DNA of 64,000 nucleotides. Source: Ignavibacteria bacterium. GTDB taxonomy: Bacteria > Bacteroidota > Ignavibacteria > Kapaibacteriales > UBA961. The position numbers and the translations under genes are program-made. The stretch is from the NCBI GenBank assembly GCA_016720145.1, contig JADJXV010000002.1, positions 152,279 through 216,278 on the forward strand, read 5' to 3'. Under the pieces are notes generated by a model. It saw only the letters and a list, made by a program, of their open reading frames with translations. It was not told the DNA's origin and searched no databases. This document shows, piece by piece, positions 3,297 through 45,950 of this stretch. Position 1 is the stretch's first letter. The number at the start of each line of letters is the position of its first letter.

Positions 3297-3746
3297 ATGC
3301 AGCGTATAAAGTTCTCAGAATCTATCCTCATCTGCGATTCACCGGAAACGGTATTTGACTTTACACAGGACTATTCCAAGCGTCTGCAATGGGATACTTT
3401 TCTCATTCAAGCAGAATTACTTGGCGGAGCAATTCACGCAAATAAAGGAGTAAAGGCATATTGCGTCTCCAAAAACCGTCTCGGTATGACCACTGAATAC
3501 GTCACCTTTCAACGTCCGCGCTATACAGCAGTTAAAATGACACAAGGTCCATTTCTGTTTAAAGAATGTTTAGGATCGTGGCGATTCAGACAGGTGGCGG
3601 AAAAGTCTACCGAAGTGACATTTCGCTATAGCTTTACCCTTCGCTTTCCATTCACGTTGGTAACATATTTTATTAGAAAAAATTTACAGATCAATGTTCG
3701 TCGGCGACTCATTGACCTAAAAAAAAATCTTGAACATGATTGTTAG
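3297..3746 (+). CDS. SRPBCC (Bet v1 / polyketide cyclase-like) superfamily protein
   Basis: It is about 150 aa, with a length and hydrophobic pattern typical of START/RHO_alpha_C/Bet v1-like proteins. The stop codon is TAG. Confidence 0.45.
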   Translation: MQRIKFSESILICDSPETVFDFTQDYSKRLQWDTFLIQAELLGGAIHANKGVKAYCVSKNRLGMTTEYVTFQRPRYTAVKMTQGPFLFKECLGSWRFRQVAEKSTEVTFRYSFTLRFPFTLVTYFIRKNLQINVRRRLIDLKKNLEHDC

Positions 3747-3838
3747 TTTCAATATTGTTTACATTCGCAAATACATATAGGTTATGTTTAAATTTATATC
3801 TACTAACTAATTTATAATCAATTACTTCCATATTATTC

Positions 3839-4810
3839 ATGAAAATTCTCTACCTCTTCTTCATCGCCTTCCCTCTCTTGATTTCACTTGCAGGAGCCCA
3901 ACAAGAATCATCTGCTGCTAAAGATATTTCGGTGGCTTTTGAAAAAAACTATAATTCTGATGATATTAATGCGGTGTTCGCACTTTTTTCACCGGAAATG
4001 AAACTTGCATTACCACTCAATAAAGCAACGAATTTTCTCAACGGACTTAAAGCACAGGCCGGGAAAATTGTTAAAAGAACTTTTATACGTTACGAAAATG
4101 GAGTCTATGCATCCTACAAGACTCAGTTTGAACAAGGAATATTTTTGCTAAAATTATATATTGATAGCACTTCCATGATCGGAGGACTTTTTATAAAACC
4201 CTACATTGAAATGAATTCACCTCTTCTGGAGCGCAATATCAGCAAGCTCATTCTCCCCATTAAAGGCGAGTGGACCGTGATATGGGGCGGTGACACCAAA
4301 GAACAAAACTATCATGTCGTGAGTACTGCTCAGAAGAATGCTTTCGATCTGGTCGTCACCAACGAAGATGGGAAATCATACAAAACCGACGGGAAAATTA
4401 ATGACGATTATTACGCATTCGGCAAGGATATCGTCGCGCCGTGTGATGGTGAGGTCGTACTGGCTGTAGATGGGATAAAAGATAATTTGCCCGGAGAGAT
4501 GAATCCTATTTTTATGACCGGTAATACGGTAGTTATTCGAACTGCTAATAAAGAATATTTGTTTTTTGCACACTTCAAGCAGAGTACTGTCAACGTAAAA
4601 GAAGGTCAATCGGTGAAGCAAGGTCAGATTTTGGGACAATGCGGGAACTCCGGTAATTCATCAGAAGCTCACCTGCATTTTCACATCCAAAACGTAGAGA
4701 ATATGAATGTTGCGACAGGCGTTAAATGCTATTTTGATAAATTAATTGTCAATGGACAAAGCAAGACGGACTATTCACCAGTACAGAAGGATATTATTCG
4801 GAATAAGTAG
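3839..4810 (+). CDS. Secreted M23-family (LytM-type) metallopeptidase
   Basis: It has a signal peptide MKILYLFFIAFPLLISLAGAQ. The C-terminal M23 motifs are ...GQILGQCGNSGNSSEAHLHFHIQ... (HxH). The stop codon is TAG. Confidence 0.75.
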   Translation: MKILYLFFIAFPLLISLAGAQQESSAAKDISVAFEKNYNSDDINAVFALFSPEMKLALPLNKATNFLNGLKAQAGKIVKRTFIRYENGVYASYKTQFEQGIFLLKLYIDSTSMIGGLFIKPYIEMNSPLLERNISKLILPIKGEWTVIWGGDTKEQNYHVVSTAQKNAFDLVVTNEDGKSYKTDGKINDDYYAFGKDIVAPCDGEVVLAVDGIKDNLPGEMNPIFMTGNTVVIRTANKEYLFFAHFKQSTVNVKEGQSVKQGQILGQCGNSGNSSEAHLHFHIQNVENMNVATGVKCYFDKLIVNGQSKTDYSPVQKDIIRNK

Positions 4811-4825
4811 GGATGTGGCGTTTCC

Positions 4826-6847
4826 TCAGCGCTTATCTTCAATCAGCAAGCGCACGGTGCGGCAGAAATACCGACCTTCCGGCAAATCATTGTTAATAAG
4901 CAACTTACCGTCGAATGCAGAAACATCGGCATTTTTATGATTCAATGATTGTGCGAGTGTACCGCCGCGTCTGAGGGCTAATTTTTTATTATAATCGAGA
5001 TTACCCGAACGGTCAGCAAATCCCACGATACTCACTTTAGAATTCGATTTGATTTGATCTTTTATCATCGATACAACGCGTTTATTGAGCGTCGTCAGCT
5101 CTGACGAATTAAAATCAAAGAGCACGAGGGTGAATTGTTTGCGTTCGACACTTGTATCCTGCACAACACTTACGCCGAGCACATCGGTGGCAGATACGTG
5201 CTTTCCTCGTGTATCGGTCACGTCGAGAAGTATCTGTAAGTCTTTGCCATAACGGGGCGCTGTGGAGTCATTCATTGGAATTGACAGTGTTTTGGGTGGC
5301 ATTCCTGTGCCGCTTGCTTTCCACAATACTTTACCGCCTTGCATGAATTGCACACTCCAATCTTTCACTCCTGCCTCGGCGATAATATCCGGAACGACAT
5401 AGAAATTCGGTTGGCTTGCGGTAAACGACGTATCATTTAAAAACACCGGCACATACAAATCTGTATTCGACGGAATGATTTCGACGCGCCGATTTTCTTC
5501 CTTGCCATCATCGGTTTTGGGATTGGAAAATTGTGACGGTAGATTACGCGCTTCGAGGGTAATGCGCTTAGTATCTATTTTCCAAACACTTGTCAGATAA
5601 TCTTTGATCGTTTGAGCGCGTCCTATGGATAATTGCTTGTTGTTGAGTTCGGATTCTGTATTAGAATTACATCCCACAAGCGTGATACTCGTAGCCGGAA
5701 ATTCATTCAAACGCTTACCAATGATATTCAAAATATGCGAATACCGATCGAGATCGGGTAGATTATCGAGCGCCAAATAGGTAAAATTACGCGCTTCATC
5801 CGCCGTAAGTCGTTTGTAACGAGGAGCAAGAACCGCCGATGAATCATCAAAAAAGATATAGGGAAGCAGCGGGAAAGCCGTATTGGTGGCTTTACTTTTG
5901 AGCGTAAGATTAAATTCTTTCTGACCGTCTTCCTTCATACGCAGCGACACCGAGGCAAGCAATCGAGGTTCGGGTTTCGGTTTGGGCGTCGGTACAGGCG
6001 GCGGCGGCGGCGGCGCAGCAGCAGGCATAATCGTCATATCCCGATGATAATATTCACGATAGAACGACACACCAATACCAAATGATGTAATATTCACCGT
6101 GCCTGTAGCAATCAGACTGCCGAGAGGCAATGCCACTTCAAGCCGGGGCGCAAGCTTCCACTCTCCATCCGGCGACAAGGGTAATGTATAGCCAATTCCG
6201 GCGGTAAGATCAAATCTGGTCGCACGAAACGAAGGAATATCTCCACTGGCATTCAAACGGTCGCGGCGGTTATTTTCATAGACAACTGTCGATGGACTCA
6301 GGATAGTCTCCGCTTGCGTAAATGTAGCAGAAAGCTGGGTTTGCATAGTAATTCCAATCTGAACCGGAAGTCGGTCGATGATCGAATACTCAATAAATGG
6401 AGCGACGATAATATCGCTGACACTCATTGCAATACGATGCTCTATCGTGACATTTTCTTCTACACCCGCATTGATCATTTTTTTTGATTCATTGGCAAGC
6501 AACGTTCCATTAAATATCCCGAAACCCACTCTCCCGCCCACACTCAAGCGTTTACCGAACACAGATTGGTACTCAGCTGCACCTCTAAAGGATAGTCCGT
6601 CGCCTGTTTTGTAGTCCGGACAGCAGCTCGGCACGCCATCTAAACCCTTAATATCCGTTGAGATAGCATTAACAGCGCCCGACACCGATGCCCCCAAGCG
6701 GTCCGTCGCATCACCTCTCGAATATGTCGTATCCTGCGCGCTGAGCGTGAAGGCAGTCATTCCGGTCATGAGGAGCACTATGGACAATACTTCCATCATT
6801 GTACAACGATTCGTTATTCGCATTTTATTCATAAGTCTTGATTTCAT
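4826..6847 (-). CDS. OmpA-family outer membrane protein. It has an N-terminal beta-barrel-like domain, a poly-Pro linker and two OmpA-like C-terminal domains.
   Basis: It has a signal peptide. The linker AAAPPPPPPVPTPKPKPEP is encoded by (GGC)n on the plus strand near 5998-6030. OmpA_C-like segments include ...SITLVGCNSNTESELNNKQLSIGRAQTIKDYL... and ...VSIVGFADRSGNLDYNKKLALRRGGTLAQSL... Confidence 0.7.
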   Translation of the reverse strand: MKSRLMNKMRITNRCTMMEVLSIVLLMTGMTAFTLSAQDTTYSRGDATDRLGASVSGAVNAISTDIKGLDGVPSCCPDYKTGDGLSFRGAAEYQSVFGKRLSVGGRVGFGIFNGTLLANESKKMINAGVEENVTIEHRIAMSVSDIIVAPFIEYSIIDRLPVQIGITMQTQLSATFTQAETILSPSTVVYENNRRDRLNASGDIPSFRATRFDLTAGIGYTLPLSPDGEWKLAPRLEVALPLGSLIATGTVNITSFGIGVSFYREYYHRDMTIMPAAAPPPPPPVPTPKPKPEPRLLASVSLRMKEDGQKEFNLTLKSKATNTAFPLLPYIFFDDSSAVLAPRYKRLTADEARNFTYLALDNLPDLDRYSHILNIIGKRLNEFPATSITLVGCNSNTESELNNKQLSIGRAQTIKDYLTSVWKIDTKRITLEARNLPSQFSNPKTDDGKEENRRVEIIPSNTDLYVPVFLNDTSFTASQPNFYVVPDIIAEAGVKDWSVQFMQGGKVLWKASGTGMPPKTLSIPMNDSTAPRYGKDLQILLDVTDTRGKHVSATDVLGVSVVQDTSVERKQFTLVLFDFNSSELTTLNKRVVSMIKDQIKSNSKVSIVGFADRSGNLDYNKKLALRRGGTLAQSLNHKNADVSAFDGKLLINNDLPEGRYFCRTVRLLIEDKR

Positions 6848-26368: not shown

Positions 26369-26479
26369 AACAGCGAAAAAATATGTGGTAGGAAATCGAA
26401 ATTTAAATTAGTAGATAAATACCGGACACCTAAACTTCTTTTAATGAATTCAACGTCATGAAACTATTGCCCAAATTCG

Positions 26480-26552
26480 CACGGGAGGAGGGACTTGAAC
26501 CCCCAACCTTCGGTTTTGGAGACCGCGACTCTACCAATTGAGCTACACCCGT
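26480..26552 (-). tRNA. tRNA-Trp (anticodon CCA)
   Basis: I folded it by hand. The anticodon loop is CTCCAAA. D- and T-arms are present. There is one apparent T-T mismatch in the acceptor stem. Confidence 0.8.
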
Positions 26553-26568
26553 AGAACGTAATCTTGAG

Positions 26569-26642
<74 letters not shown>

Positions 26643-26665
26643 AGACTTACTCCATCCCCCGTTTG

Positions 26666-26738
<73 letters not shown>

Positions 26739-26788
26739 AGTACTTTTACCTGCTTAGAATACTACCCCTGCCATAGAACTACCCAATG

Positions 26789-26861
26789 AGCGGGAGACGA
26801 GACTCGAACTCGCGACCAACAGCTTGGAAGGCTGTGACTCTACCAACTGAGTTACTCCCGC
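26789..26861 (-). tRNA. tRNA-Gly (anticodon TCC)
   Basis: The acceptor is GCGGGAG/CTCCCGC. The anticodon loop is CTTCCAA. Confidence 0.85.
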
Positions 26862-26884
26862 TTATACTAACTACTTGAAAAATG

Positions 26885-26968
26885 TGGGCAGAGAAGGATT
26901 TGAACCTCCGTAACGCGAAGCGTGACAGATTTACAGTCTGTTGCCATTAACCACTCGGCCATCTGCCC
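26885..26968 (-). tRNA. tRNA-Tyr (anticodon GTA)
   Basis: It is 84 nt with a long variable arm. The anticodon loop is CTGTAAA. Confidence 0.85.
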
Positions 26969-27676: not shown

Positions 27677-28570
27677 ATGTGCCGTTTTGTAGCTTATATT
27701 GGTACGCCCGTTCTGGCGGACGACCTGCTGTACAAGCCGAAATATTCGATTATTACCGCACAAAGCATCAATGCCGGTGAAATGTCTATCGCCGTCAATG
27801 GCGACGGATTCGGCGTGGGCTGGTATGTACCCGAAATTGACAGCGAGCCGTGCGTATTTCGGAGTATCAAGCCCTCGTGGAGCGATCAAAACCTCCGCAA
27901 TATTGCCAAGAAAATCTACTCACCGCTGATTTTTGCTCATATCCGAGCCGCCTCGCCCGGACTCCCCGTCGAAGAATTCAACTCCCACCCGTTTTCCTGC
28001 GGTAAATTGATGTTTATGCACAATGGCATGCTCGGCGGATTCAAAGAAATCCGTCGGAAATTGCTCCGCGAATTGAATGATACGGCGTATGATGCGATTC
28101 TGGGTTCGACCGATTCCGAACACCTTTTTGGCTTATTTCTCAATCACATAGACGACCCGTCAGGTGATGTGACCTGTGATGAAATGGTCTATGCGATGCA
28201 CAAAATGCTTGAGGATGTCAGTAATTTACTTATCGAACATAATATCCGGTCGCACTCCTATCTCAATCTGTGTGTGACCAATGGCAATAGTATCGTAGCC
28301 GTGCGCTACACGACCAATCCAAGCGTGCAGCCTGCCACGCTGTATTATATGTTTGGCAAAGAATATCAATGCCGCGGCGAGCATTGTCAGATGGAGCCGA
28401 CGTTTGGTCGGCCGAATGCGATTGTGATCGCGTCCGAACCCTTTACCTACCGGCGCTCCGACTGGATGAAAGCCGAGCGTAATTCGATGATGATTGTCGA
28501 TGAAACGATGAAAATCAGCTTCCAAAATGTAGAATTGGCGATTGAAAAGGCGATGTTTGAGGAAGTGTGA
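27677..28570 (+). CDS. Class II (Ntn) glutamine amidotransferase domain protein (YafJ/EgtC-like)
   Basis: The N-terminal Met-Cys (MCRFVAYIG) is the catalytic Cys2. It has the GATase_2-like fold length. Confidence 0.7.
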   Translation: MCRFVAYIGTPVLADDLLYKPKYSIITAQSINAGEMSIAVNGDGFGVGWYVPEIDSEPCVFRSIKPSWSDQNLRNIAKKIYSPLIFAHIRAASPGLPVEEFNSHPFSCGKLMFMHNGMLGGFKEIRRKLLRELNDTAYDAILGSTDSEHLFGLFLNHIDDPSGDVTCDEMVYAMHKMLEDVSNLLIEHNIRSHSYLNLCVTNGNSIVAVRYTTNPSVQPATLYYMFGKEYQCRGEHCQMEPTFGRPNAIVIASEPFTYRRSDWMKAERNSMMIVDETMKISFQNVELAIEKAMFEEV

Positions 28571-28684: not shown

Positions 28685-30646
28685 ATGATAGATTTAATTT
28701 ACCTTGTTCCTTTATTACCGCTTATCGGATTTTTCATTGTAGGGCTTTTTGGTAAAAAGCTCAAGAGTGAGTCGCTTGTCGGCGGGATTGCAAGCGCGGC
28801 AGTCGGCGGCGCGTTCGTGGTGGCGGTTTCGATATTTGTTTCCTTGCTTGGTCATGGCCCCGAAGAGCGTTCGCATGTCGTGCGGCTCTTTACCTGGATG
28901 CAAGCCGGTACTTTCTCGATTGACATATCCTACCAAGTCGATCAGCTCTCGATACTCTACACGCTGATTATCACCGGAATCAGAACGCTGATTCACATCT
29001 ATTCTATCGGCTATATGCATGGCGACAAAGGGTTTCCGAGGTTTTTTGCCTACCTGAACCTCTTTATTTTCATGATGCTTAATCTCGTTCTCGCCAGTAA
29101 TTTCCTGCTCACCTTCCTCGGTTGGGAAGGCGTCGGTCTCTGCTCCTACCTCTTGATTGGCTTCTGGCACGACCGGAAATTCGAAGGGTCAAATATCGTC
29201 TGGACCGGCGACGCAGCGAAAAAAGCATTTATCGTTAATCGTATCGGCGACTTTGGTGTGCTTGTCGCTATGTTTTTGATTTACAGCAACTTCCACACGC
29301 TTGATTATGCTTCTGTTAATTCTCAGGCAGCCGCAGGATTCCCTATCGGCTCGGGATTAATCACCGCAATTACCCTTCTCCTCTTCCTCGGTTGTACCGG
29401 TAAATCCGCGCAAATTCCCCTCGGTATCTGGCTTCCGGATGCTATGGCAGGTCCAACTCCTGTGTCAGCGCTCATTCACGCGGCGACGATGGTCACGGCA
29501 GGTATATTCCTCATCGCGCGGAATGCAACGATGTTTGCTCTCTCGCCGACGACTATGGCTGTGGTCACGGGTATTGGTATTACCACCGCTCTCACGGCAG
29601 CGCTGGTGGGTCTTGTACAGAATGACATTAAGAAAGTCCTTGCATATTCTACGGTTAGTCAACTTGGGTTTATGTTTGTCGCACTTGGTGTCGGTGCGTT
29701 TACGGCCGGTGTATTCCACGTGATGACACATGCATTCTTTAAAGCATTGCTGTTCTTGGGGTCGGGTTCGGTCATCCATGGTATGCACGAAGAACAAGAC
29801 ATTCAGCGCATGGGCGGCTTGAAAAAGTATATGCCGACGACGTACAAAACGTTCTTGATTGGTACAATTGCCATTGCCGGTATATTCCCTTTTGCAGGAT
29901 TTTTCTCGAAAGATGAAATTTTGTGGAATGCGTTCTCGCAGGGTAGTCCGATTTTATGGGGTGTAGGCGTGCTTGCTGCCTTCTGTACTGCCTTTTACAT
30001 GTTCAGATTATTACACTTAACATTTCATGGCAAAGAGCGATTCGACCATCATCATGTGCATCCGCATGAGTCACCGATTTCGATGACCTTCCCGCTGATG
30101 GTGCTCGCTGTTCTGTCTGTTTTGGGTGGATTTTTGGGAATACCGTATGCGTTAAGCTTTGGCGGTTCAATTCCCAATATTTTAGAACATTGGTTAGAAC
30201 CGATTTTTGCGCCTGCGATGGAGATTCTTCATCGTCCGGAAGTGCATGAGGTACATGCAATTGAATATGTACTTATGGCTGCTTCCCTTGGAATTGCAAT
30301 TATAGGTATAATGCTTGCCGGTAAATTCTACAAAACCGAATCCGACAAGCCGCAAGAATTGGCGACTCGATTTTCGGGGATGTACAAGGTATTATGGAAC
30401 AAATGGTTCATTGATGAAATTTACCAAGGACTTTTTGTCAATACCTTTTACACGCTTTCCAATGGATTTTTATGGAAAATTTTCGATGTTAAAATTGTTG
30501 ATGGAATTGTCAATGGTTCGGCACGTGTCGTGGCTGAAAGCGGTGAATTACTTCGCAAGATACAGTCCGGTATCGCACAAAATTACGCGCTGATGATGAT
30601 GGTAGGAATTGTCATGATATTAGTATGGCTTGGGATGGGAAGCTAA
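28685..30646 (+). CDS. nuoL: NADH-quinone oxidoreductase subunit L. The ORF track start at 28604 is an upstream extension.
   Basis: The N-terminus MIDLIYLVPLLPLIGF is typical. It has the NuoL/MrpA antiporter-like core and a C-terminal long helix region. Confidence 0.9.
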   Translation: MIDLIYLVPLLPLIGFFIVGLFGKKLKSESLVGGIASAAVGGAFVVAVSIFVSLLGHGPEERSHVVRLFTWMQAGTFSIDISYQVDQLSILYTLIITGIRTLIHIYSIGYMHGDKGFPRFFAYLNLFIFMMLNLVLASNFLLTFLGWEGVGLCSYLLIGFWHDRKFEGSNIVWTGDAAKKAFIVNRIGDFGVLVAMFLIYSNFHTLDYASVNSQAAAGFPIGSGLITAITLLLFLGCTGKSAQIPLGIWLPDAMAGPTPVSALIHAATMVTAGIFLIARNATMFALSPTTMAVVTGIGITTALTAALVGLVQNDIKKVLAYSTVSQLGFMFVALGVGAFTAGVFHVMTHAFFKALLFLGSGSVIHGMHEEQDIQRMGGLKKYMPTTYKTFLIGTIAIAGIFPFAGFFSKDEILWNAFSQGSPILWGVGVLAAFCTAFYMFRLLHLTFHGKERFDHHHVHPHESPISMTFPLMVLAVLSVLGGFLGIPYALSFGGSIPNILEHWLEPIFAPAMEILHRPEVHEVHAIEYVLMAASLGIAIIGIMLAGKFYKTESDKPQELATRFSGMYKVLWNKWFIDEIYQGLFVNTFYTLSNGFLWKIFDVKIVDGIVNGSARVVAESGELLRKIQSGIAQNYALMMMVGIVMILVWLGMGS

Positions 30647-30650
30647 CGTA

Positions 30651-31217
30651 ATGAATCAATTGGAACAAAAACAATCAGGATTAGCAGCTGTTAGTGAAAA
30701 ATCACTTGCCGTGATCGTCTATTCGCTTACGATTGTCGTAGTTGCACTTGTATCATTTTTGATTTACTTTCCGCAGACGCTGGCCTTAGGACATCTCGAT
30801 GTATCAATGCTTCCGGCGCTCAATGCCTTTATCAACGGTACGTGCGCGGTGCTTCTTTCTGCCGGCTATGTCTTTATCCGCCGGCGGAATTTCAAGGCGC
30901 ACAAGACGATGATGCTGTCGGCGTTTTTGCTTTCGTGCCTTTTTCTCCTCTCGTATGTGACGTATCACTCTCAGGCACCGGCCACGAAATTCGGCGGTGA
31001 AGGGATGATTCGGATGGTGTATTTTACGATATTGCTGACGCATATCGTGCTTGCTGCGGTGATTGTGCCACTGGCGCTATTTACAATTACGCGGTCGTGG
31101 CGCGGAGAATTCGCCAAGCATAAAAAAATAGCGCGGTGGACTCTCCCACTGTGGCTCTATGTGACGATTACCGGCGTGGTGGTGTATTTGATGATTTCGC
31201 CGTATTATGTACATTAA
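30651..31217 (+). CDS. DUF420 family membrane protein (YozB-like). The start could also be 30630, overlapping the end of nuoL.
   Basis: It has four predicted TM helices. The pattern ...FKAHKTMMLSAF...YVTYH...FGGEG...HIVLA...HKKIARWTLPLWLYVTITGVVVYLMI is typical of DUF420. Confidence 0.55.
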   Translation: MNQLEQKQSGLAAVSEKSLAVIVYSLTIVVVALVSFLIYFPQTLALGHLDVSMLPALNAFINGTCAVLLSAGYVFIRRRNFKAHKTMMLSAFLLSCLFLLSYVTYHSQAPATKFGGEGMIRMVYFTILLTHIVLAAVIVPLALFTITRSWRGEFAKHKKIARWTLPLWLYVTITGVVVYLMISPYYVH

Positions 31218-31270
31218 TTATTGATATTTCTTTAGTTAGTTTTTTTGGTAGAACTTAACCTGATATACTT

Positions 31271-32824
31271 ATGGGAATGTTACTTGTTACTCTTTTTCTT
31301 CCTTTAATCGGCTTTTTAGCGACACTTTTTATCGATAAAGAGGAGTCGAAAGGAATTAAATATACGGCGCTCGGTGTTTCATTGATGACGTTTTTTGCGT
31401 CGCTGTTTTTGTATTTTGGGTTCGACCATACGAATTCCGGCTATCAATTTGTGCTCAACCAAGTTTGGATACCGACCTTTGACGCAGGCTTCAGGATCGG
31501 CGCCGATGGTATGTCGCTTTTGATGATACTCCTTACCACCTTCATCACGCCGATTGCGATATTATGTTCCTTCGGGTCTATCCAAAAACGTGAAAAAGAA
31601 TATTATGCCTGGATGCTGATGCTCCAATTCGGAATGCTTGGTGTGTTTGTGGCTATGGATACGTTCTTATTCTATGTATTTTGGGAACTTATCCTCATCC
31701 CAATGTATTTCCTGATTGGTATTTGGGGCGGAAAAGATCGTATTTATGCGGCGGTGAAATTCTTCCTTTACACACTGGTCGGTTCACTCCTGATGCTGAT
31801 CGCCATTGTCTGGCTTGGAATTTACGCGCAAGGTATGGCAGGCGGACACTTTACGGCTGATTTACTCAAGCTCCGTGAAATTGCTCCCACGATTCCCTTC
31901 GAAACTCAAAAATGGCTTTTCCTTGCATTTGCCCTTTCCTTCTGTATTAAAGTTCCGCTCTTTCCTTTCCATACCTGGCTTCCCGATGCGCACGTGCAGG
32001 CTCCCACTGCCGGTTCGGTAATTCTCGCCGGTGTGCTCCTTAAAATGGGTACCTACGGGTTGATTCGCTTCAACTTAGAACTCTTTCCGCAGTCGATGTT
32101 TGAGTATGCTACGCCCATTGCATGGCTGGCGGTGATTGGTATCATTTACGGCGCCCTCGTGGCGATGGTGCAGACGGATGTGAAAAAATTAGTCGCCTAT
32201 TCCTCGGTGAGCCACTTGGGTTTTGTGGTGCTCGGAATTTGCTCGATGACGCCGGAAGGCATTCAAGGCGCGATTATTCAAATGGTCAATCACGGACTCT
32301 CGACAGGTATGCTCTTCCTTTGTGTCGGTGTCCTGTACGAACGTCGTCATACGCGGGAAATATCTGAATTTGGTGGAATTACAAAGGTGATGCCGAAATT
32401 CGCCGTTCTCTTTACGATAGCCATGCTCGCCTCTGTCGGTCTGCCGATGCTTAATGGATTTGTGGGTGAATACTTGACGCTTCTCGGCGCATTTATCTCA
32501 CCATTCTTGAATAATCCTTGGCTGAGCATTATCAGCGCAACGGGTGTGATTTTCGCGGCGGTGTATTTGCTATGGATGTTCCAACGGGTGATGTTCGGCA
32601 CGAATGACAATCCGAAGAACCACGGACTCAAAGACTTAACAACATCGGAATACTGGCAGCTTGTGCCGATTGCAATATTAATTGTCTGGCTCGGCGTTTA
32701 TCCAAAAACATTCATGGTCATTTCCGAACAGTCCACACAGGCATTGGTCGGTAAATTAGAAAAGATCAAATTCGGCAAAACGAATTATCCGCTGATTGAG
32801 AAGAAAGAACAAGCGCTGAAGTAA
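31271..32824 (+). CDS. nuoM: NADH-quinone oxidoreductase subunit M
   Basis: It is 517 aa with NuoM/antiporter-like blocks. Confidence 0.9.
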   Translation: MGMLLVTLFLPLIGFLATLFIDKEESKGIKYTALGVSLMTFFASLFLYFGFDHTNSGYQFVLNQVWIPTFDAGFRIGADGMSLLMILLTTFITPIAILCSFGSIQKREKEYYAWMLMLQFGMLGVFVAMDTFLFYVFWELILIPMYFLIGIWGGKDRIYAAVKFFLYTLVGSLLMLIAIVWLGIYAQGMAGGHFTADLLKLREIAPTIPFETQKWLFLAFALSFCIKVPLFPFHTWLPDAHVQAPTAGSVILAGVLLKMGTYGLIRFNLELFPQSMFEYATPIAWLAVIGIIYGALVAMVQTDVKKLVAYSSVSHLGFVVLGICSMTPEGIQGAIIQMVNHGLSTGMLFLCVGVLYERRHTREISEFGGITKVMPKFAVLFTIAMLASVGLPMLNGFVGEYLTLLGAFISPFLNNPWLSIISATGVIFAAVYLLWMFQRVMFGTNDNPKNHGLKDLTTSEYWQLVPIAILIVWLGVYPKTFMVISEQSTQALVGKLEKIKFGKTNYPLIEKKEQALK

Positions 32825-32831
32825 GTGATAT
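32743..32831. repeat. Direct repeat copy 1. It is the last roughly 27 codons of nuoM plus its stop.
   Basis: Copy 1 is about 92% identical over 89 nt to 33321..33409 by manual alignment (7 mismatches). Confidence 0.8.
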
Positions 32832-32874
32832 TAGCAATTAAAACAATTCTATCTTTATTTATAATCAAAATGTT

Positions 32875-33075
32875 ATGAATTTTCAAGTTGTAATTGAAGA
32901 AGATGAATCCGGTTACTTCGTCGTTGAAGTTCCGGCTCTATCCGGATGTTTTTCTCTGGAAAAATCAATTGAAGAAGCATCTGTAAATATAAAAGAAGCT
33001 ATTATTGGTTGGCTGTCGGTGATGAATGATAGAGCAAAGAAAAGTAAAATGCGGACAATTGAGGTGGCGGTTTGA
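32875..33075 (+). CDS. HicB-like / UPF0150-family antitoxin, short form. It is an orphan, with no HicA seen.
   Basis: The sequence MNFQVVIEEDESGYFVVEVPALSGCFSLEKSIEEASVNIKEAII fits the HicB N-domain pattern (x-DEDGGY-x-VPDLPGC-x-G-T-EEA-NIKEAI). Confidence 0.6.
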   Translation: MNFQVVIEEDESGYFVVEVPALSGCFSLEKSIEEASVNIKEAIIGWLSVMNDRAKKSKMRTIEVAV

Positions 33076-33320
33076 GCCAGCAATTGATACTATGTTCCGG
33101 GCTGAAAGCATCTAAGAAATTTCAGAGACGGTTGGCAGGTTGATAGGCAAGTCGGTTCTCATCTTATGCTTGTGAAAGATGGATTTCCTTATACATTATC
33201 AATTCCTCTGTATAAAGAATTAGGAATCGGAATTCTAAAAAAACTCGTAAATCTATCAGGGCTAACTAACGAAGAATTTAATAATTTGTGAGTCATCTAT
33301 AAGTACTATAATCAACTAAG

Positions 33321-33409
33321 CGTTGGTCGGCAAATTAGAAAAAATCAAATTCGGTAAAACGAATTACCCGCTGCTTGAGAAGAAAGAACAAGCGTCGAAG
33401 TAAGTGATA
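33321..33409. repeat. Direct repeat copy 2, a displaced and diverged duplicate of the nuoM 3' tail. It still encodes *ALVGKLEKIKFGKTNYPLLEKKEQASK*.
   Basis: It begins exactly at an in-frame TAA, so it is not part of any ORF. The differences from copy 1 are mostly synonymous. Confidence 0.8.
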
Positions 33410-33472
33410 AGGGCGAAGTAACACGTTGGTAATCTTGCTATTACAACAAAACTCATTCCGTACAATTCTGCC

Positions 33473-35323
33473 TTGTGCATGAAAAAACAACTACCATATT
33501 CGCTGTCGATTGTTCTCTGTTTCCTCTGGGTGTATTCCGGCTATAGCCAAGCGCCGAAGCCACTGCAGCTTGGAGTGAATCTCGATGACAACGGCGCATT
33601 TGTAAATATGGTCAATCATACTAATCGCTATAATAAAGCATCAGGTTATGATAAGAATGGTTGGCCGACAAGCGACTTTGATCTGACGCTCCTCGACGGA
33701 CGTCCGGCGACAGAATGGACGAATTCCATCGACGATCCGGAGAAATACAGAATCGACTATAGCGGCAGATATGCGGGGAGTTTTGTTGGGTCGGCGACGT
33801 TTCGTGCAACGGGCACAAGCGTTTCGATTGAGAATCTGATGTACGATTCTCTCAAAAACACGACACAATTTGAGCTTGTCGTAGGCGGCTATCCTAATGC
33901 GAATCATGCACTTGTGTTTTTGGGCTTTACGAATACCCGGCGCACGGCACAGGATACGCTCCGCTCCGGTATTACAGAACTTAAAGTACTGCGCCCCGGA
34001 TATGCGATTACTACCAATAAAGTATTTACCGACGAATATATTGCGCTCTGTAAGGCGGCTGATTTTGCTGCGTACCGATACTACAATGTACAGAATATTT
34101 GGGATGGTGAGCCGACGTATCCTGCTAGAACTACATGGGATAAGCGCAAAACACCACAGGATGCTTCGCAGCGAACATTAGCCGGAATCAATGGCAAGCG
34201 CGATGGATGGTGTTGGGAATATATCATCGAATTAGCAAATATTTTGAATAAAGATATCTGGGTGTGTCTGCACATGTCCTGCGACTCAGGATACGTAACG
34301 AGTCTCGCTCAGATGCTCAAGGAAAAGCTTAATCCGGGAATCAATATTTATGTCGAAAACAGCAATGAAGTGTGGAGTCCTACTCAATTGACTCATGGAC
34401 CATACAATCAAGCCGAGGCAACATTCAATAAAATTACTTTTGATGAAAATTATGCCCGACGTTCGGTCGAATTATCAAAATGGTTCGCCCTCGTCTATGG
34501 TCAGCAGGAAATTAACAACAAAATCAGAGTAATTCTCGCAGGACAACACGCATATAACGGCAGGAGTGACAATCACTTAAATTATATCAAGAAAGTTTTT
34601 GGCGCTCCAAAAGATTTTATTTATGCCACAAGTACAGCTTTATATTTCGGCTCAACGAAAGAATCGAATCCCGACCCACGGGTGGTTAATCAGGGAATGG
34701 CAGAGGATATTACGGCGCAGATATCGAACGCACAGAGCGGTTTTTACCGGCTCAATCATATCTCCAAAGCGAAGAACTGGGAATTAAAAGGTGGAGTCAC
34801 ATCGTATGAGGGTGGACCACACATGCCATCCGGTGGTGGTACAGTGAATCTCGCGAGTCAGATTTTGTCGCATCGGACTGAAGAGATGGGAGCAATTACG
34901 AAGCTTAATTATTCAGAAGGTTGGCAGGCGCTTGGTGGTGGTCTTGCGATGTATTTCACGCTTACGTCTGCGTATAACCGCTATGGTTGCTGGGGAATTA
35001 CCGACGATTATACCAAGCCGGACAGAAATTTTAAAATGAAGGCGCTCCGTGAGTTGACAGCGCCGCCGATTGGAGTGAGTGAAGAGGTACCTCAGGAACA
35101 GAATGTAACGATTGGCTACGACTCCAAGAACCAAACAGTGCATATTCAGACACTTACTTCGACGCCTACCATAGCAATATACTCTGTACTCGGAGAAGTA
35201 GTGATGCGTTCGGCCAGCTCAGTAGCATCAGTACGAACATTACCGAGAGGACTCTATACGGTGGTCGTACAAACGGACAATGGGCAGCAATTCGTAAAGA
35301 GTATTCTTCATGGTGGAGAATGA
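33473..35323 (+). CDS. Secreted putative glycoside hydrolase (TIM-barrel-like, NE motif) with a T9SS type-A C-terminal sorting domain
   Basis: It has a signal peptide. ...NIYVENSNEVW... is a candidate catalytic acid/base motif. The C-terminus ...TIAIYSVLGEVVMRS...LPRGLYTVVVQTDNGQQFVKSILH fits a T9SS CTD. Confidence 0.5.
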   Translation: MCMKKQLPYSLSIVLCFLWVYSGYSQAPKPLQLGVNLDDNGAFVNMVNHTNRYNKASGYDKNGWPTSDFDLTLLDGRPATEWTNSIDDPEKYRIDYSGRYAGSFVGSATFRATGTSVSIENLMYDSLKNTTQFELVVGGYPNANHALVFLGFTNTRRTAQDTLRSGITELKVLRPGYAITTNKVFTDEYIALCKAADFAAYRYYNVQNIWDGEPTYPARTTWDKRKTPQDASQRTLAGINGKRDGWCWEYIIELANILNKDIWVCLHMSCDSGYVTSLAQMLKEKLNPGINIYVENSNEVWSPTQLTHGPYNQAEATFNKITFDENYARRSVELSKWFALVYGQQEINNKIRVILAGQHAYNGRSDNHLNYIKKVFGAPKDFIYATSTALYFGSTKESNPDPRVVNQGMAEDITAQISNAQSGFYRLNHISKAKNWELKGGVTSYEGGPHMPSGGGTVNLASQILSHRTEEMGAITKLNYSEGWQALGGGLAMYFTLTSAYNRYGCWGITDDYTKPDRNFKMKALRELTAPPIGVSEEVPQEQNVTIGYDSKNQTVHIQTLTSTPTIAIYSVLGEVVMRSASSVASVRTLPRGLYTVVVQTDNGQQFVKSILHGGE

Positions 35324-35419
35324 TTTTTTAATACATAAGTCATTGAAAATATGACTTGTACAGTATTTATGCAGCATTAATTTTAAAAATTTACTTTAGA
35401 ATTTAGACGGAGAACAATA

Positions 35420-35683
35420 ATGGGTTTTATCAAGAATTTTTTTGCAAAACAGCATAAATGGGTGTTGAATGGACACGACAAAACCGACCAATGGAAATCA
35501 GTCAAAGTCGGTGATACAGTTGAATTTGCGATGACCATGACCGAAGGCGTGACCTATTCTGTCGAGTCGATTAATCAGGAAGCTGCAGAAGCGAAAATTC
35601 GCAGACGCACATCAGATGGGTCTAATGGAGAAGCGTACACGGTGGGCTTGGTAATGCTCCGTCCTATTGCTATCACAAAATAA
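35420..35683 (+). CDS. Hypothetical small protein (87 aa)
   Basis: An RBS-like ggagaacaataATG precedes it. No recognisable domain. Confidence 0.35.
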   Translation: MGFIKNFFAKQHKWVLNGHDKTDQWKSVKVGDTVEFAMTMTEGVTYSVESINQEAAEAKIRRRTSDGSNGEAYTVGLVMLRPIAITK

Positions 35684-35731
35684 CATACAGCTAATTACTT
35701 AGAATATCAAAGACTTTTTAACGGAACTCAC

Positions 35732-37234
35732 ATGCATCCAGATTTCCTCCTTTCGGCTCCATTACTGTTTCTTTCCATCATGGCGACCACCTTGATGGTC
35801 GTAGATGCTTTAATCAAAAAGAGCACAAAAATTACCTTTACCATTAGTTGGGTGACTCTACTAGTGACGGCAATCCTTTCTGCGCTTACCCTCAGTCAAA
35901 GCGGTACTGCGTTCAATGGTATGATTACCCTTGGAAGCTTTGGAGCATTTTTCGATATATTGTTTTGCGGTGCAGGAGTGCTGACTTTGCTGGCAGCGCG
36001 ACCGTTTATGCAGCGCGAAGGACTAGAACAGAATGAATTTCATTCTCTATTACTTTTTGCAATTAGCGGGATGATGCTGATAGCACATGCAAATAATTTA
36101 TTGACTTTGTTCATTGGAATAGAAGTGATGTCTGTTTGTTTTTATGTACTTGCCGGATATACACGTTCGTCCGTTCGCTCCGTCGAGGCGTCCCTAAAGT
36201 ATTTTCTTTTAGGCGCATTTGCTACCGGTTTTTTAGTCTATGGCATGGCATTAATTTATGGTGCGACTGGCAGTATGAATTACAATGAAATTTTTGCTGC
36301 TGCCGGACAACCTCTTCGATTTCCATCACTTATGATGATTGGGATAGGATTGCTTATTATTGGCTTGAGTTTTAAAGCGGCTGCATTTCCCTTTCATCAA
36401 TGGGCTCCGGATGTGTATCAGGGGGCACCAACTGTTGTGACTGCTTTTATGAGTACAGCCGGTAAAATAGCTGCCTTCTCTGCATTTCTGCCAATAGTTG
36501 CTATCGTATCACCTGCCGGTGGTACCAAGCTTCAATTAGTGCTTGCCGTTCTTGCTGCTACTACCATGCTTGTCGGGAATATCAGCGCGCTTGTACAATC
36601 AAATATTAAGCGTATGCTTGCCTATTCTTCGGTAGCTCATGCAGGTTATTTGATGATGGGTTTGGTGGCAGAGTCAACTATGGCTTTTCCTGAAACAAAT
36701 CTCCAGCATCTTTCATTCAACAATTCATTAAATGGTATTCAGTATTATCTAACTGCTTATTTATTTATGCAGCTTGGAGCATTTGTAGTTGTATCGATTC
36801 TGGAGAAAAATGGTGAGAAGAACCTCGAACTAAGTGATTATGCAGGGCTCAGTAAACGCCATCCGATGCTCGCTGCTTTGATGTCTATGTTTATGCTTTC
36901 CCTTGCAGGTATTCCACCTTTTGCAGGATTCTTTGGAAAGTATTATCTGTTTGTCGCAACGATCGAGGCCGGCTATACATGGCTCACCATTATTGCTGTT
37001 CTCTCTTCTATCATATCTGTTTATTTCTATATTGGTTTAATTGTAAAAATGTATTTTACCGACTCAGTTGAGGATAATCAGCCGGTGAGTGAAACGGGAA
37101 TTGCATCAATTTCACTAGTTTTTTCTTCTGTGGCAATTGTCGTACTTGGACTATTTCCTCCTGGATTATTCGAAAAATTGGCACATGTTTCTGATTCTAT
37201 TATAGCTACGTTCAAGATGATATTTGGGCATTAA
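35732..37234 (+). CDS. nuoN: NADH-quinone oxidoreductase subunit N
   Basis: It is a 500 aa polytopic NuoN-like protein. Confidence 0.9.
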   Translation: MHPDFLLSAPLLFLSIMATTLMVVDALIKKSTKITFTISWVTLLVTAILSALTLSQSGTAFNGMITLGSFGAFFDILFCGAGVLTLLAARPFMQREGLEQNEFHSLLLFAISGMMLIAHANNLLTLFIGIEVMSVCFYVLAGYTRSSVRSVEASLKYFLLGAFATGFLVYGMALIYGATGSMNYNEIFAAAGQPLRFPSLMMIGIGLLIIGLSFKAAAFPFHQWAPDVYQGAPTVVTAFMSTAGKIAAFSAFLPIVAIVSPAGGTKLQLVLAVLAATTMLVGNISALVQSNIKRMLAYSSVAHAGYLMMGLVAESTMAFPETNLQHLSFNNSLNGIQYYLTAYLFMQLGAFVVVSILEKNGEKNLELSDYAGLSKRHPMLAALMSMFMLSLAGIPPFAGFFGKYYLFVATIEAGYTWLTIIAVLSSIISVYFYIGLIVKMYFTDSVEDNQPVSETGIASISLVFSSVAIVVLGLFPPGLFEKLAHVSDSIIATFKMIFGH

Positions 37235-45263: not shown

Positions 45264-45950
45264 TCAATACACCCGCGCTTCATCATTCAATATTTTTATT
45301 CCTTCTCCTGCTTGCGTCAGAACATAGACACCTAATTTTTTGGCGGCTTCGAGCGCATGGTCATCAACGCTCAATCCTGCTACGGAAAGATAAATATCCT
45401 TCGAAGCTTCTTCCGGGAATAGTATGCGGAAGTTCTCAACTTTCCTTTTCGTTAGCTCCTCGATATCATCGCTGCGCAGTCGGTATTTTATCTCTACAAT
45501 TCCGACTGCTTTTTCGCCGTAAAGGATAACATCATATTGATCGCGCAGGGTACGCTGCTTGTTATAGCGCTTTTCATTTCGCTCGGCAAAGTCAAAACTC
45601 ACGCCATTGAGTGACGGCGTTCTCTCGAGTGCCGCCGAAAAAAACTGTTCGGCCGTGAGCCCGTTAGAGTCGGTAACGCCATTGATATGCCGTGATAATT
45701 CCTTGATATATCTGCCGATTTCTTGGAGTTCTGTCGATGTGTTGTGGGTGAGTTCTGTAATTTCAGCACGAGTTTCTGTGCTTGTTTCCTGAAACTTACG
45801 ATCAGTTTCCTGAAATTTACGGTCAGTATCCAGAAACTTACGGTCAGTGTCTTGAAATTTACGATCAGTTTCCTGAAATTTACGATCAGTTTCTTTCTGA
45901 CTCTGAGCGAGTTCTCTGAGGATGAGCTTTACTTCTTCGAGTGTATCCAT
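45264..45950 (-). CDS. Hypothetical protein with an N-terminal tandem heptad repeat (ETDRKFQ x about 6) and a C-terminal PD-(D/E)xK nuclease-like motif
   Basis: The repeat is ...QKETDRKFQETDRKFQDTDRKFLDTDRKFQETDRKFQE... The C-terminus has ...YDVILYGEKAVGIVEIKYRL..., which is D-x(n)-E-x-K. Confidence 0.45.
   Translation of the reverse strand: MDTLEEVKLILRELAQSQKETDRKFQETDRKFQDTDRKFLDTDRKFQETDRKFQETSTETRAEITELTHNTSTELQEIGRYIKELSRHINGVTDSNGLTAEQFFSAALERTPSLNGVSFDFAERNEKRYNKQRTLRDQYDVILYGEKAVGIVEIKYRLRSDDIEELTKRKVENFRILFPEEASKDIYLSVAGLSVDDHALEAAKKLGVYVLTQAGEGIKILNDEARVY
45784..45895. repeat. 21-bp tandem repeat (about 5-6 units, tttcctgaaatttacgatcag-like) inside the coding sequence of 45264..45950
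   Basis: It is visible directly as ...tttcctgaaacttacgatcagtttcctgaaatttacggtcagtatccagaaacttacggtcagtgtcttgaaatttacgatcagtttcctgaaatttacgatcag... Confidence 0.8.

Follow-up and report, generated by a model that had tools for sequence, protein, structure and literature searches.

Chromosomal toxin-antitoxin (TA) modules are patchy in their distribution and often lie between the genes of otherwise contiguous operons, and the route by which they enter is unknown (PMC7167474). The described intercistronic insertions include relA-mazEF-mazG, dinB-yafNO-yafP and folA-ccdO157-apaH, and the same site can hold different occupants in different strains, as with parDE at relA-mazG in Salmonella; the mechanism of TA integration was called 'unelucidated' in a 2020 review (PMC7167474). 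Here we describe a hicBA cassette in a 64,000-nucleotide stretch of contig JADJXV010000002.1 from an Ignavibacteria bacterium (hereafter the window), where it sits at the 3' end of the Complex I subunit gene nuoM, enclosed by two versions of the nuoM end. As at the loci above, a TA pair stands between operon genes that are contiguous in strains without the pair. Unlike here, a flanking duplicate of the upstream gene's end goes unmentioned for those TA loci in the review, through which alone the comparison is made (PMC7167474). Near-identical strains show this one site empty, with one cassette, or with another, and the footprint is fresh, consisting of two allelic target-gene ends that were both shaped by purifying selection. 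Such an allelic footprint points to a crossover with a carried fragment of the target gene, rather than to transposition.

The insertion of prophage e14 into icd of Escherichia coli K-12 offers a second comparison. There, prophage-borne sequence completes icd and a displaced fragment, icdC, lies at the other end; the differences between icd and icdC are mostly synonymous or conservative, and recombination between the two would give back one gene of hybrid sequence (PMC13626634, which cites Hill et al. 1989). Prophage e14 (and phage 21) in icd resembles the present case in that the insert occupies the 3' end of a central-metabolism gene and leaves the upstream open reading frame (ORF) intact. 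However, e14 is 15 kb long and carries its own integrase and excision functions, whereas the insert in the window has 489 bp, holds a TA pair only, without a recombinase, and has a Complex I subunit gene as its target. Cis-mobilisable elements (CIMEs) are att-flanked remnants of integrative and conjugative elements (ICEs), for instance at the 3' end of fda in Streptococcus thermophilus. Like the cassette in the window, they are non-autonomous and lack an integrase, and they are bounded by attL/attR-like repeats at the 3' end of a protein-coding gene. Ours is far smaller and consists of the TA pair only; an autonomous, integrase-bearing element using the same target and att site was found neither in viral contigs nor among the 183 retrieved loci, among the matches listed. 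Lastly, in Campbell-type integration, as here, the insert lies between two hybrid homologous segments, and the repeat is as long as the homology carried. Campbell-type insertion-duplication is a principle of laboratory mutagenesis and is known mainly as an engineered event; to our knowledge, natural small circles bearing TA genes have not been described. The combination at nuoM, namely a recombinase-less two-gene TA cassette, allelic Complex I gene ends, alternative occupants and empty sites, is a variant of these known kinds. Its use lies mainly in being a testable footprint, of which the anatomy is solid and the mechanism is deduced.

Anatomy of the hicBA insertion at the nuoM end

The insertion and its immediate flanks are made up of the following features (positions are those of the window; aa, amino acids; nt, nucleotides):

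31271..32824, + strand: nuoM, 517 aa, intact (Pfam Proton_antipo_M, 1.2e-78); its last 27 codons form repeat copy 1
32741..32830, + strand: repeat copy 1, the expressed copy, with the last 27 nuoM codons, the TAA stop and 6 nt
32831..33319, + strand: hicBA cassette body, 489 bp, GC 34%, missing from empty-site relatives
32875..33075, + strand: hicB, an intact 66-aa HicB-like antitoxin (Pfam PF15919, 6.8e-11)
33072..33291, + strand: hicA pseudogene (PF07927, 3.6e-8, on the 33106-33291 frame) with a 2-nt deletion at about 33129
33320..33409, + strand: repeat copy 2, a silent displaced nuoM 3' end without a start codon, with an in-frame TAA (33317-33319) just before it
33410..33478, + strand: native spacer between nuoM and the next gene, homologous to the spacer of empty-site relatives

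The two copies of the direct repeat have 90 nt each, are identical at 82/90 positions, and lie 579 nt apart, enclosing 489 bp. A blastn comparison of the two flanks gives E = 2e-33, and, the tRNA genes and one tandem array (21-nt unit) aside, this is the longest dispersed repeat in the window. The nuoM ORF runs through copy 1 to its own TAA, so that the target ORF stays intact. The initial annotation of this DNA had described about 2.9 kb of foreign-looking sequence between nuoM and nuoN, flanked by a duplicated nuoM 3' end. The duplication itself is borne out, including its 27 nuoM codons and the stop codon directly before copy 2, with limits that lie 1-2 nt from those first given. Its place is not: the two copies do not flank 2.9 kb, as both sit at the left end of the nuoM-nuoN interval and enclose 489 bp. 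The interval as a whole contains the HicB-like ORF, the HicA frame, a protein with a type IX secretion system (T9SS) tail, an 87-aa ORF, and short spacers.

The HicB protein in the window is of the short form, without the DNA-binding extension. Its closest relative, protein P0002 on the 1.5-kb contig L081 (labels of the form L### denote contigs and loci retrieved from related genomes and metagenomes), is 68% identical. In L081, hicB is followed by an intact 73-aa hicA with a TTG start that overlaps the hicB stop. The window has the same arrangement, with a TTG start for hicA at 33072 overlapping the hicB stop by 4 nt; in the alignment of the two hicA genes, a 2-nt gap at about 33129 shifts the window's frame, and an in-frame TGA occurs at 33103. 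Measured against the HicAB family of type II TA systems, the locus has the HicB-like domain and the adjacent HicA domain, and it lacks an intact toxin frame. Judged from its reading frames, the cassette is an intact antitoxin beside a toxin pseudogene, not a functional pair. The HicB ORF is real, as first annotated, yet it is not the orphan that it had been taken for, because a HicA frame follows it. Likewise, the stretch at about 33095-33150 that had been read as a 23S-rRNA-like fragment lies inside the hicA frame, being the 5' part of its coding sequence; a search of Rfam at E<=1 over 32000-36500 returned no rRNA match and one chance snoRNA hit.

The cassette stands apart in composition, with a GC content of 34.2% vs 46.2% for nuoM and 42% for the window, and hicB has a GC fraction at third codon positions of 0.28 vs 0.535 for nuoM. 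It is also compact. Within the insert, 44 nt precede hicB and 28 nt follow hicA; a match of the sigma-70 promoter type occurs at 32838-32865, before hicB. As had been noted from the start, no integrase is present in the insert; more broadly, no recombinase is found in its 489 bp, which hold hicB and hicA only, or among the Pfam-scanned neighbours (nuo genes, rpl genes, nusG, OmpA, and T9SS-type proteins).

Several familiar kinds of mobile DNA can be set aside. An integron gene cassette is rejected, as there is no inverted repeat at the cassette ends, the flanks are nuoM coding sequence, and no integrase is nearby. An insertion sequence (IS) or an element of the miniature inverted-repeat (MITE) type is rejected, as terminal inverted repeats are absent and the duplication is 90 nt long and allelic, vs the 2-14 bp expected. 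A phage or plasmid origin of the cassette is rejected on two grounds: 2.9 million viral contigs gave no match for the nuoM-end pattern, for the HicB of the window's cassette (type 1), or for the HicA of a second cassette type described below (type 2), and plasmid and phage homologues of HicB are only distant (<60%; Helicobacter and cyanobacterial plasmids and phages). Exact-protein look-up of HicB and nuoM found no other assembly with the type-1 arrangement.

Empty and occupied states of the site in relatives

Relatives were collected by a NuoM scan with one genome per species, which gave at least 80 loci, all from metagenome-assembled genomes (MAGs). The closer ones (L001-L051) are labelled Kapaibacteria, Ignavibacteria or Bacteroidota, and the window proteins were mapped onto these 51 closest loci. 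Extra contigs came from the members of the 90%-identity cluster of the T9SS-tailed protein, a glycoside hydrolase (GH)-like protein encoded downstream of the cassette, together with one 81% relative.

The initial annotation had suggested looking in relatives for an uninterrupted junction, and close relatives indeed have an uninterrupted nuoM-end site. One of them, L001, has a nuoM with 99% aa identity and 93% nt identity to that of the window. Window positions 30648-32828 align to L001 up to the nuoM end, and window positions 33320-35079 align onward from the same L001 bases; the stretch between them, 32829-33319, has no counterpart in L001. A single nuoM end in L001 thus matches both copies, and a 75-nt spacer and then the GH-like gene come after it. 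The same empty site with a single nuoM end is found in 12 close relatives in all (L001-L003, L168-L173, L174, L175 and L185). Among 15 related loci, an 18-mer from the nuoM end occurs in two copies only in the window.

A second, different hicBA pair occupies the nuoM end in L162-L167, which are six contigs from independent assemblies. This type-2 filling has 614 nt and encodes a different HicB-like protein (UPF0150/HicB_lk) and a 75-aa HicA (PF07927, 2.7e-17), with only 6 nt after hicA. It is flanked by a nuoM-end duplicate that spans the stop codon (L162:4366-4402 and 4903-4946, 37-44 nt). The duplicate begins ~14-20 nt before the stop and extends after it for 13 nt in the left copy and 24 nt in the right copy, which has extra bases; its local alignment score is 38, vs 20.4 +/- 3.2 in 500 shuffles with a maximum of 33. 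The target segment common to the type-1 and type-2 duplicates runs from -14 to +6 around the stop codon. Strains whose GH-like protein is at least 90% identical thus show three states of the nuoM/GH-like junction: empty, with type-1 hicBA, or with type-2 hicBA. This is the alternation of occupants at one operon site that marks an intercistronic TA hot spot.

In L162-L164 the type-2 hicA starts with ACG instead of ATG (~190-200 nt into the filling), and its GSH motif reads GRH (~280-290 nt). Decay of the toxin therefore recurs in the second cassette type, because these three hicA genes carry both the ACG start and the GRH motif. Separately, a contig from another sample (L184, positions 1-110) has its end ~35 nt inside the nuoM-end repeat, shortly before the GH-like gene; strain heterogeneity at the insertion slot may have broken the assembly there.

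Origin of the two nuoM ends and possible routes of insertion

The two repeat copies differ at positions 3, 12, 24, 36, 48, 55, 76 and 77, and their longest exact block is 20 nt. The differences had been described as mostly synonymous, which is correct for six of the eight when read in the nuoM frame; as 25% of random substitutions would be synonymous, the probability of at least 6/8 is 0.004 for an unconstrained sequence. Both copies were compared with 15 close nuoM ends. Copy 1 has the private states G24, T48, A55 and C76 (three synonymous, one Ile/Leu), none of which (0/4) is shared with copy 2, and copy 2 has the private states G3 and C12, both synonymous. At the two remaining positions copy 2 has alleles of working nuoM genes, T36 being that of L162-L173 and C77 (Ser codon TCG) that of L168-L173, and over positions 13-85 it does not differ from the functional nuoM end of L168-L173. 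Across the 1554 nt of the window's nuoM, 44 sites are private, 36 of which fall at third codon positions, and four private sites in copy 1 are unremarkable vs the 2.3 expected per 81 nt.

Copy 2 would have been silent only briefly, because it has 2 private changes in 90 nt vs ~17% of sites differing from L001 in the non-coding spacer beside it. The age given in the initial annotation, which took the event to be old and decayed, is accordingly doubtful, as the insertion is strain-specific and the silent copy has very few changes. Most simply read, these substitutions mean that each copy belonged to a functional nuoM gene until recently, so that one of the two would have come from another, related genome with the cassette. 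We could not place the crossover from the pattern of single-nucleotide differences, as divergence in the lineage of the window itself could also account for the private changes of copy 1. If the break fell between positions 12 and 24, the host allele would equal the L168 allele and all six private states would belong to the incoming copy; a crossover close to the stop of nuoM would fit equally well, and the counts appear compatible with either copy as the resident.

We favour, with middling confidence, a strain-specific 579-bp insertion-duplication at the nuoM stop, by which hicBA and a nuoM end of ~90 nt were gained through a single crossover. We propose the following course. A minimal hicB-hicA cassette would have arrived with a ~90-nt nuoM 3' end from another, related genome, and a small circular or circularised DNA would have integrated in the Campbell manner, by one reciprocal crossover between the carried nuoM-end copy and the resident nuoM end. 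Because the insert has no recombinase, this crossover would have been either homologous or catalysed by a recombinase supplied in trans. The product would be a hybrid copy, the cassette, and a second hybrid copy, with a repeat length equal to the homology carried. Copy 1 would complete nuoM and leave Complex I unharmed, and copy 2 would be an untranslated leftover before the native spacer and the GH-like gene. Later, a 2-nt deletion would have inactivated the toxin gene, with the antitoxin staying intact. The data show the anatomy of the insertion, the empty site in relatives, the second, unrelated hicBA cassette at this site and the allelic, mostly synonymous differences between the copies; the circular intermediate, the single crossover and any choice of the resident copy are deduced. 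Integration into a gene's 3' end had already been proposed for this locus; the two allelic nuoM ends and the intact upstream gene agree with it, and the integrated element is the 579-bp unit, not 2.9 kb.

Three sets of observations support a cassette that carries its own flank. First, two unrelated hicBA pairs are found at one gene end with different repeat lengths, 90 vs ~40 nt. Second, both cassettes at the nuoM site are minimal, with 6-28 nt after hicA. Third, two versions (KILKAVVVK* and KILKVVVVK*) of at least the last 9 codons of a gene for a T9SS-sorted protein enclose a hicBA in L089 that belongs to the family of the type-1 cassette.

Other points weigh against a single crossover with a carried nuoM end. 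The insert and its surroundings lack a recombinase, neither a circular form nor a donor was seen in the data examined here, and the type-1 arrangement is known from one assembly only, which is a MAG. A T at position 89 is common to both copies of the window, where relatives have C, and the deficit of changes in copy 2 (P ~0.02-0.08 by our own Poisson/binomial estimate) is modest as an argument against duplication in situ. The two type-2 copies share lineage-specific states (TTTT, CTC), which suggests either in-situ duplication of the target or a very close donor; a homology of 37-44 nt, as in type 2, is short for RecA-mediated recombination. Finally, a gene-end duplicate was seen in only 3 of about 42 hicBA contexts examined.

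Only tentatively would we extend the single-crossover account to the minimal hicBA cassettes of these bacteria, as recombinase-less mobile units that would pass between related genomes in the form of small circles with the previous host's upstream gene end and re-integrate by a single crossover at the matching gene end. If true, this would explain the two-allele footprint at nuoM (twice, with unrelated cassettes) and in L089, and it would give a concrete, testable route for the entry of chromosomal TA pairs into operons, the very step called 'unelucidated' (PMC7167474).

Flanking direct repeats occur at 6 of ~37 non-redundant loci with a HicB of the same family, vs 0-1 in a reverse-strand control (z>6). 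Those in L098, L103, L106, L110, L121 and L133 are interspersed repeats of the hairpin type and do not represent gene ends, and among the same-family loci only L089 matches the anatomy of the window. No flanking gene-end duplicate was found in L176 and L178, two relatives of the type-2 cassette. A general rule that gene-end duplicates flank hicBA is rejected, as most of the repeats are of the hairpin type and L176 and L178 have none. Many of these hicBA relatives (the metagenome loci L098, L103, L106/L107, L110, L121 and L133) lie in same-strand arrays of small ORFs with conserved hairpin repeats. The repeat units, of 49 nt in L121 and of 286 nt at 99% identity in L106, are reminiscent of repetitive extragenic palindromic (REP) elements or cassette arrays.

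The main alternative, which we consider unlikely, is that the cassette is the remnant of a larger integrase-borne element, a prophage or an island, for which the nuoM 3' end served as attB and which brought a replacement end with it. Deletions would have left attL-hicBA-attR, a CIME-like, cis-mobilisable unit; this is the model of the initial annotation cut down to 579 bp. Allelic, mostly synonymous direct repeats around an intact target ORF and the empty, single-copy site in relatives are what such an element would leave, and the two cassettes use overlapping parts of the target, with a common segment from -14 to +6 relative to the stop. It also counts in favour of this account that TA modules are commonly what a decaying element loses last. 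A precedent exists in e14 at icd (PMC13626634). On the other side, an element-encoded recombinase is absent, and there is no trace of any other gene in the 44 nt before hicB and the 28 nt after hicA, or in the 6 nt of type 2. Two independent elements would both have to decay to exactly a TA pair and keep both att sites. Neither the nuoM-end sequence nor a related hicBA appears in the 2.9 million viral contigs, and none of 15 related loci has a second nuoM-end copy.

An equally unlikely account is duplication of the target in situ during an illegitimate insertion, with copies that were identical at first and then diverged. It could proceed by template switching in replication, or a hicBA fragment could have been captured in the repair of widely staggered breaks. 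The length of the duplication varies over three independent insertions (90 nt, ~40 nt and at least 31 nt), as in imprecise events; the absence of a recombinase, the lineage-specific states shared by the type-2 copies and the common T at position 89 of the type-1 copies also agree with it. A neutral copy 2, however, would be expected to gain ~4 changes for each change in copy 1, at all codon positions, and the observed ratio is 2-4 vs 4. Moreover, each change in copy 2 either falls at a third codon position or equals an allele of a functional gene, beside a spacer that is ~17% diverged from L001. By this substitution pattern, duplication in situ appears disfavoured for type 1, and it would fit type 2.

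It is very improbable that the tandem nuoM ends are an assembly artefact, in which two co-occurring strains were stitched together in the MAG. The source is indeed a MAG, type 1 is found in one assembly only, and the related contig L184 breaks inside the repeat region. But the junctions of the insert (32830/32831 and 33319/33320) are outside the shared sequence, and the longest exact shared block, at 20 nt, is too short for a mis-join at typical k-mers of metagenome assemblers. A chimeric path would still require a real molecule with hicA followed by nuoM-end sequence, and the analogous type-2 structure is present in six independent assemblies.

Older residents of the nuoM-nuoN interval and the surrounding chromosome

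To the right of repeat copy 2 and the native spacer, the interval continues with two further genes before nuoN:

33479..35323, + strand: GH-like gene, a candidate T9SS-sorted glycoside hydrolase resembling clan GH-A, 614 aa from the ATG, with a Por_Secre_tail domain
35420..35683, + strand: orf87, a conserved small protein of 87 aa, without a Pfam hit
35732..37234, + strand: nuoN, longest ORF (Pfam 1.3e-70), starting at 35732 or at an internal ATG near 35780

In relatives, nuoN is called at 484 aa, which corresponds to the window ATG near 35780. The gene order at the junction depends on the distance of the relative. nuoM and nuoN are adjacent in L004 and most of L011-L047; the order is nuoM-orf87-nuoN in L005-L010 and L044 (nuoM 76-78% identical), and nuoM-GHlike-orf87-nuoN in L002 and L003 (91-92%) and in L001 (99%). 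The GH-like gene was found in L001-L003, L162-L175, L184 and L185, and it lies between nuoM and orf87 in every relative whose nuoM has at least 91% aa identity. In this family-level clade, orf87 sits between nuoM and nuoN down to 77% nuoM identity. Hence these two genes are older occupants of the nuoM-nuoN interval, inherited vertically, and stand outside the insertion event, because they are kept at the junction in relatives that lack this hicBA insert. Their composition is ordinary (GC 45.9% for the GH-like gene and 43.6% for orf87), so that the foreign look first ascribed to the whole 2.9 kb is confined to the 489-bp cassette. The initial annotation had itself raised the possibility that the GH-like gene might be a conserved nuo-associated gene in relatives and the repeat similarity insignificant; the former is the case, and the latter is not.

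That the whole 2.9 kb forms a single foreign element, hicB, the GH-like gene and orf87 included, is hardly credible and is rejected. nuoM and nuoN are indeed adjacent in the more distant relatives, but the genes form nested layers of different age: orf87 reaches down to 77% nuoM identity, the GH-like gene is confined to relatives at or above 91%, and hicBA occurs in this strain only. Neither the GH-like gene nor orf87 is unusual in composition, and the GH-like gene has both repeats on its left.

All three proteins named in the initial annotation of the interval, that is, HicB, the 614-aa protein with its T9SS tail and the 87-aa ORF, are real, and the label GH-like for the second agrees with its structural matches. 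An AlphaFold 2 model of the GH-like protein (pLDDT 84) combines a beta-sandwich with a TIM-like barrel and a T9SS C-terminal domain, and Foldseek matches it to GH5, GH53, GH10 and GH2 barrels of clan GH-A (E 3e-7 to 1e-4) as well as to the C-terminal domain of a T9SS substrate; a sequence search of the PDB with the protein gave no hits. The predicted fold thus supports a GH-like, T9SS-secreted identity for the 614-aa protein. An alternative TTG start at 33473 would give 616 aa. An alignment of 31 homologues has the invariant motifs ENSNEVW and SYEGG, which we infer to fit the acid/base and nucleophile positions of clan GH-A. For orf87, the alignment of 12 orthologues (L002, L003, L005-L010, L044, L162, L168 and L174) has the strongly conserved motifs NGHDxTDQWK, GDTVEFAMT and VGxVMLRP. 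Considering its sequence conservation and its position, orf87 may serve Complex I as a partner specific to this lineage.

A 15-nt inverted repeat without mismatches connects 33392-33406, at the end of copy 2 (GCGTCGAAGTAAGTG), with 35151-35165, in the part of the GH-like gene that encodes the T9SS tail; the chance expectation for the 6.5-kb region is ~0.02 pairs of this kind. The sequence on the GH side is kept in L162, L165 and L174 and is different in L168, without a compensating change. A functional long-range pairing is rejected for this lack of covariation in L168, and the repeat is probably due to chance.

The nuoM-nuoN junction is not invariant in the phylum and has accepted genes several times, because other lineages hold other genes there. 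In L002 the junction contains a gene for a 437-aa membrane protein (3716-5029), and in L049-L051 the junctions contain transporter-like membrane proteins of ~455-500 aa (L049:9545-11047; L050:6373-7878; L051:9530-10897). This junction is usually treated as invariant, and in Ignavibacteriota it has repeatedly accepted genes without disruption of the Complex I genes.

The operon varies upstream of nuoM as well. A gene for a DUF420 membrane protein (Pfam 1.5e-46) lies at 30630-31217 of the window, between nuoL and nuoM, a position that it keeps in relatives with as little as ~77% NuoM identity. Several close relatives have a PD-(D/E)XK 'transposase'/Rpn-like gene (Pfam PDDEXK_2, ~1e-68; L001:307-1209, L162:1190-2200 and L168:1823-2737) that separates nuoL from the DUF420 gene. 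The window does not have this gene, and its nuoL stop overlaps the DUF420 start (30630-30646). The PDDEXK_2 gene is a second presence/absence polymorphism within the nuo operon; no flanking duplication was seen at the L001 copy.

The neighbourhood of the locus is core chromosome, not an island. Upstream of nuoL-M-N the window has a class-II glutamine amidotransferase gene (27677-28570), not nuoA-K. Five tRNA genes (Trp, Thr, Gly-CCC, Gly-UCC and Tyr) are clustered on the minus strand at 26479-26968, downstream of nusG, rplK, rplA, rplJ and rplL, and the two large ORFs beyond this cluster are presumably rpoB and rpoC. Farther along the window, the tandem array with the 21-nt unit, in about six copies (GTTTCCTGAAAYTTACGRTCA), occupies 45784-45914 inside a minus-strand ORF (45264-45950).

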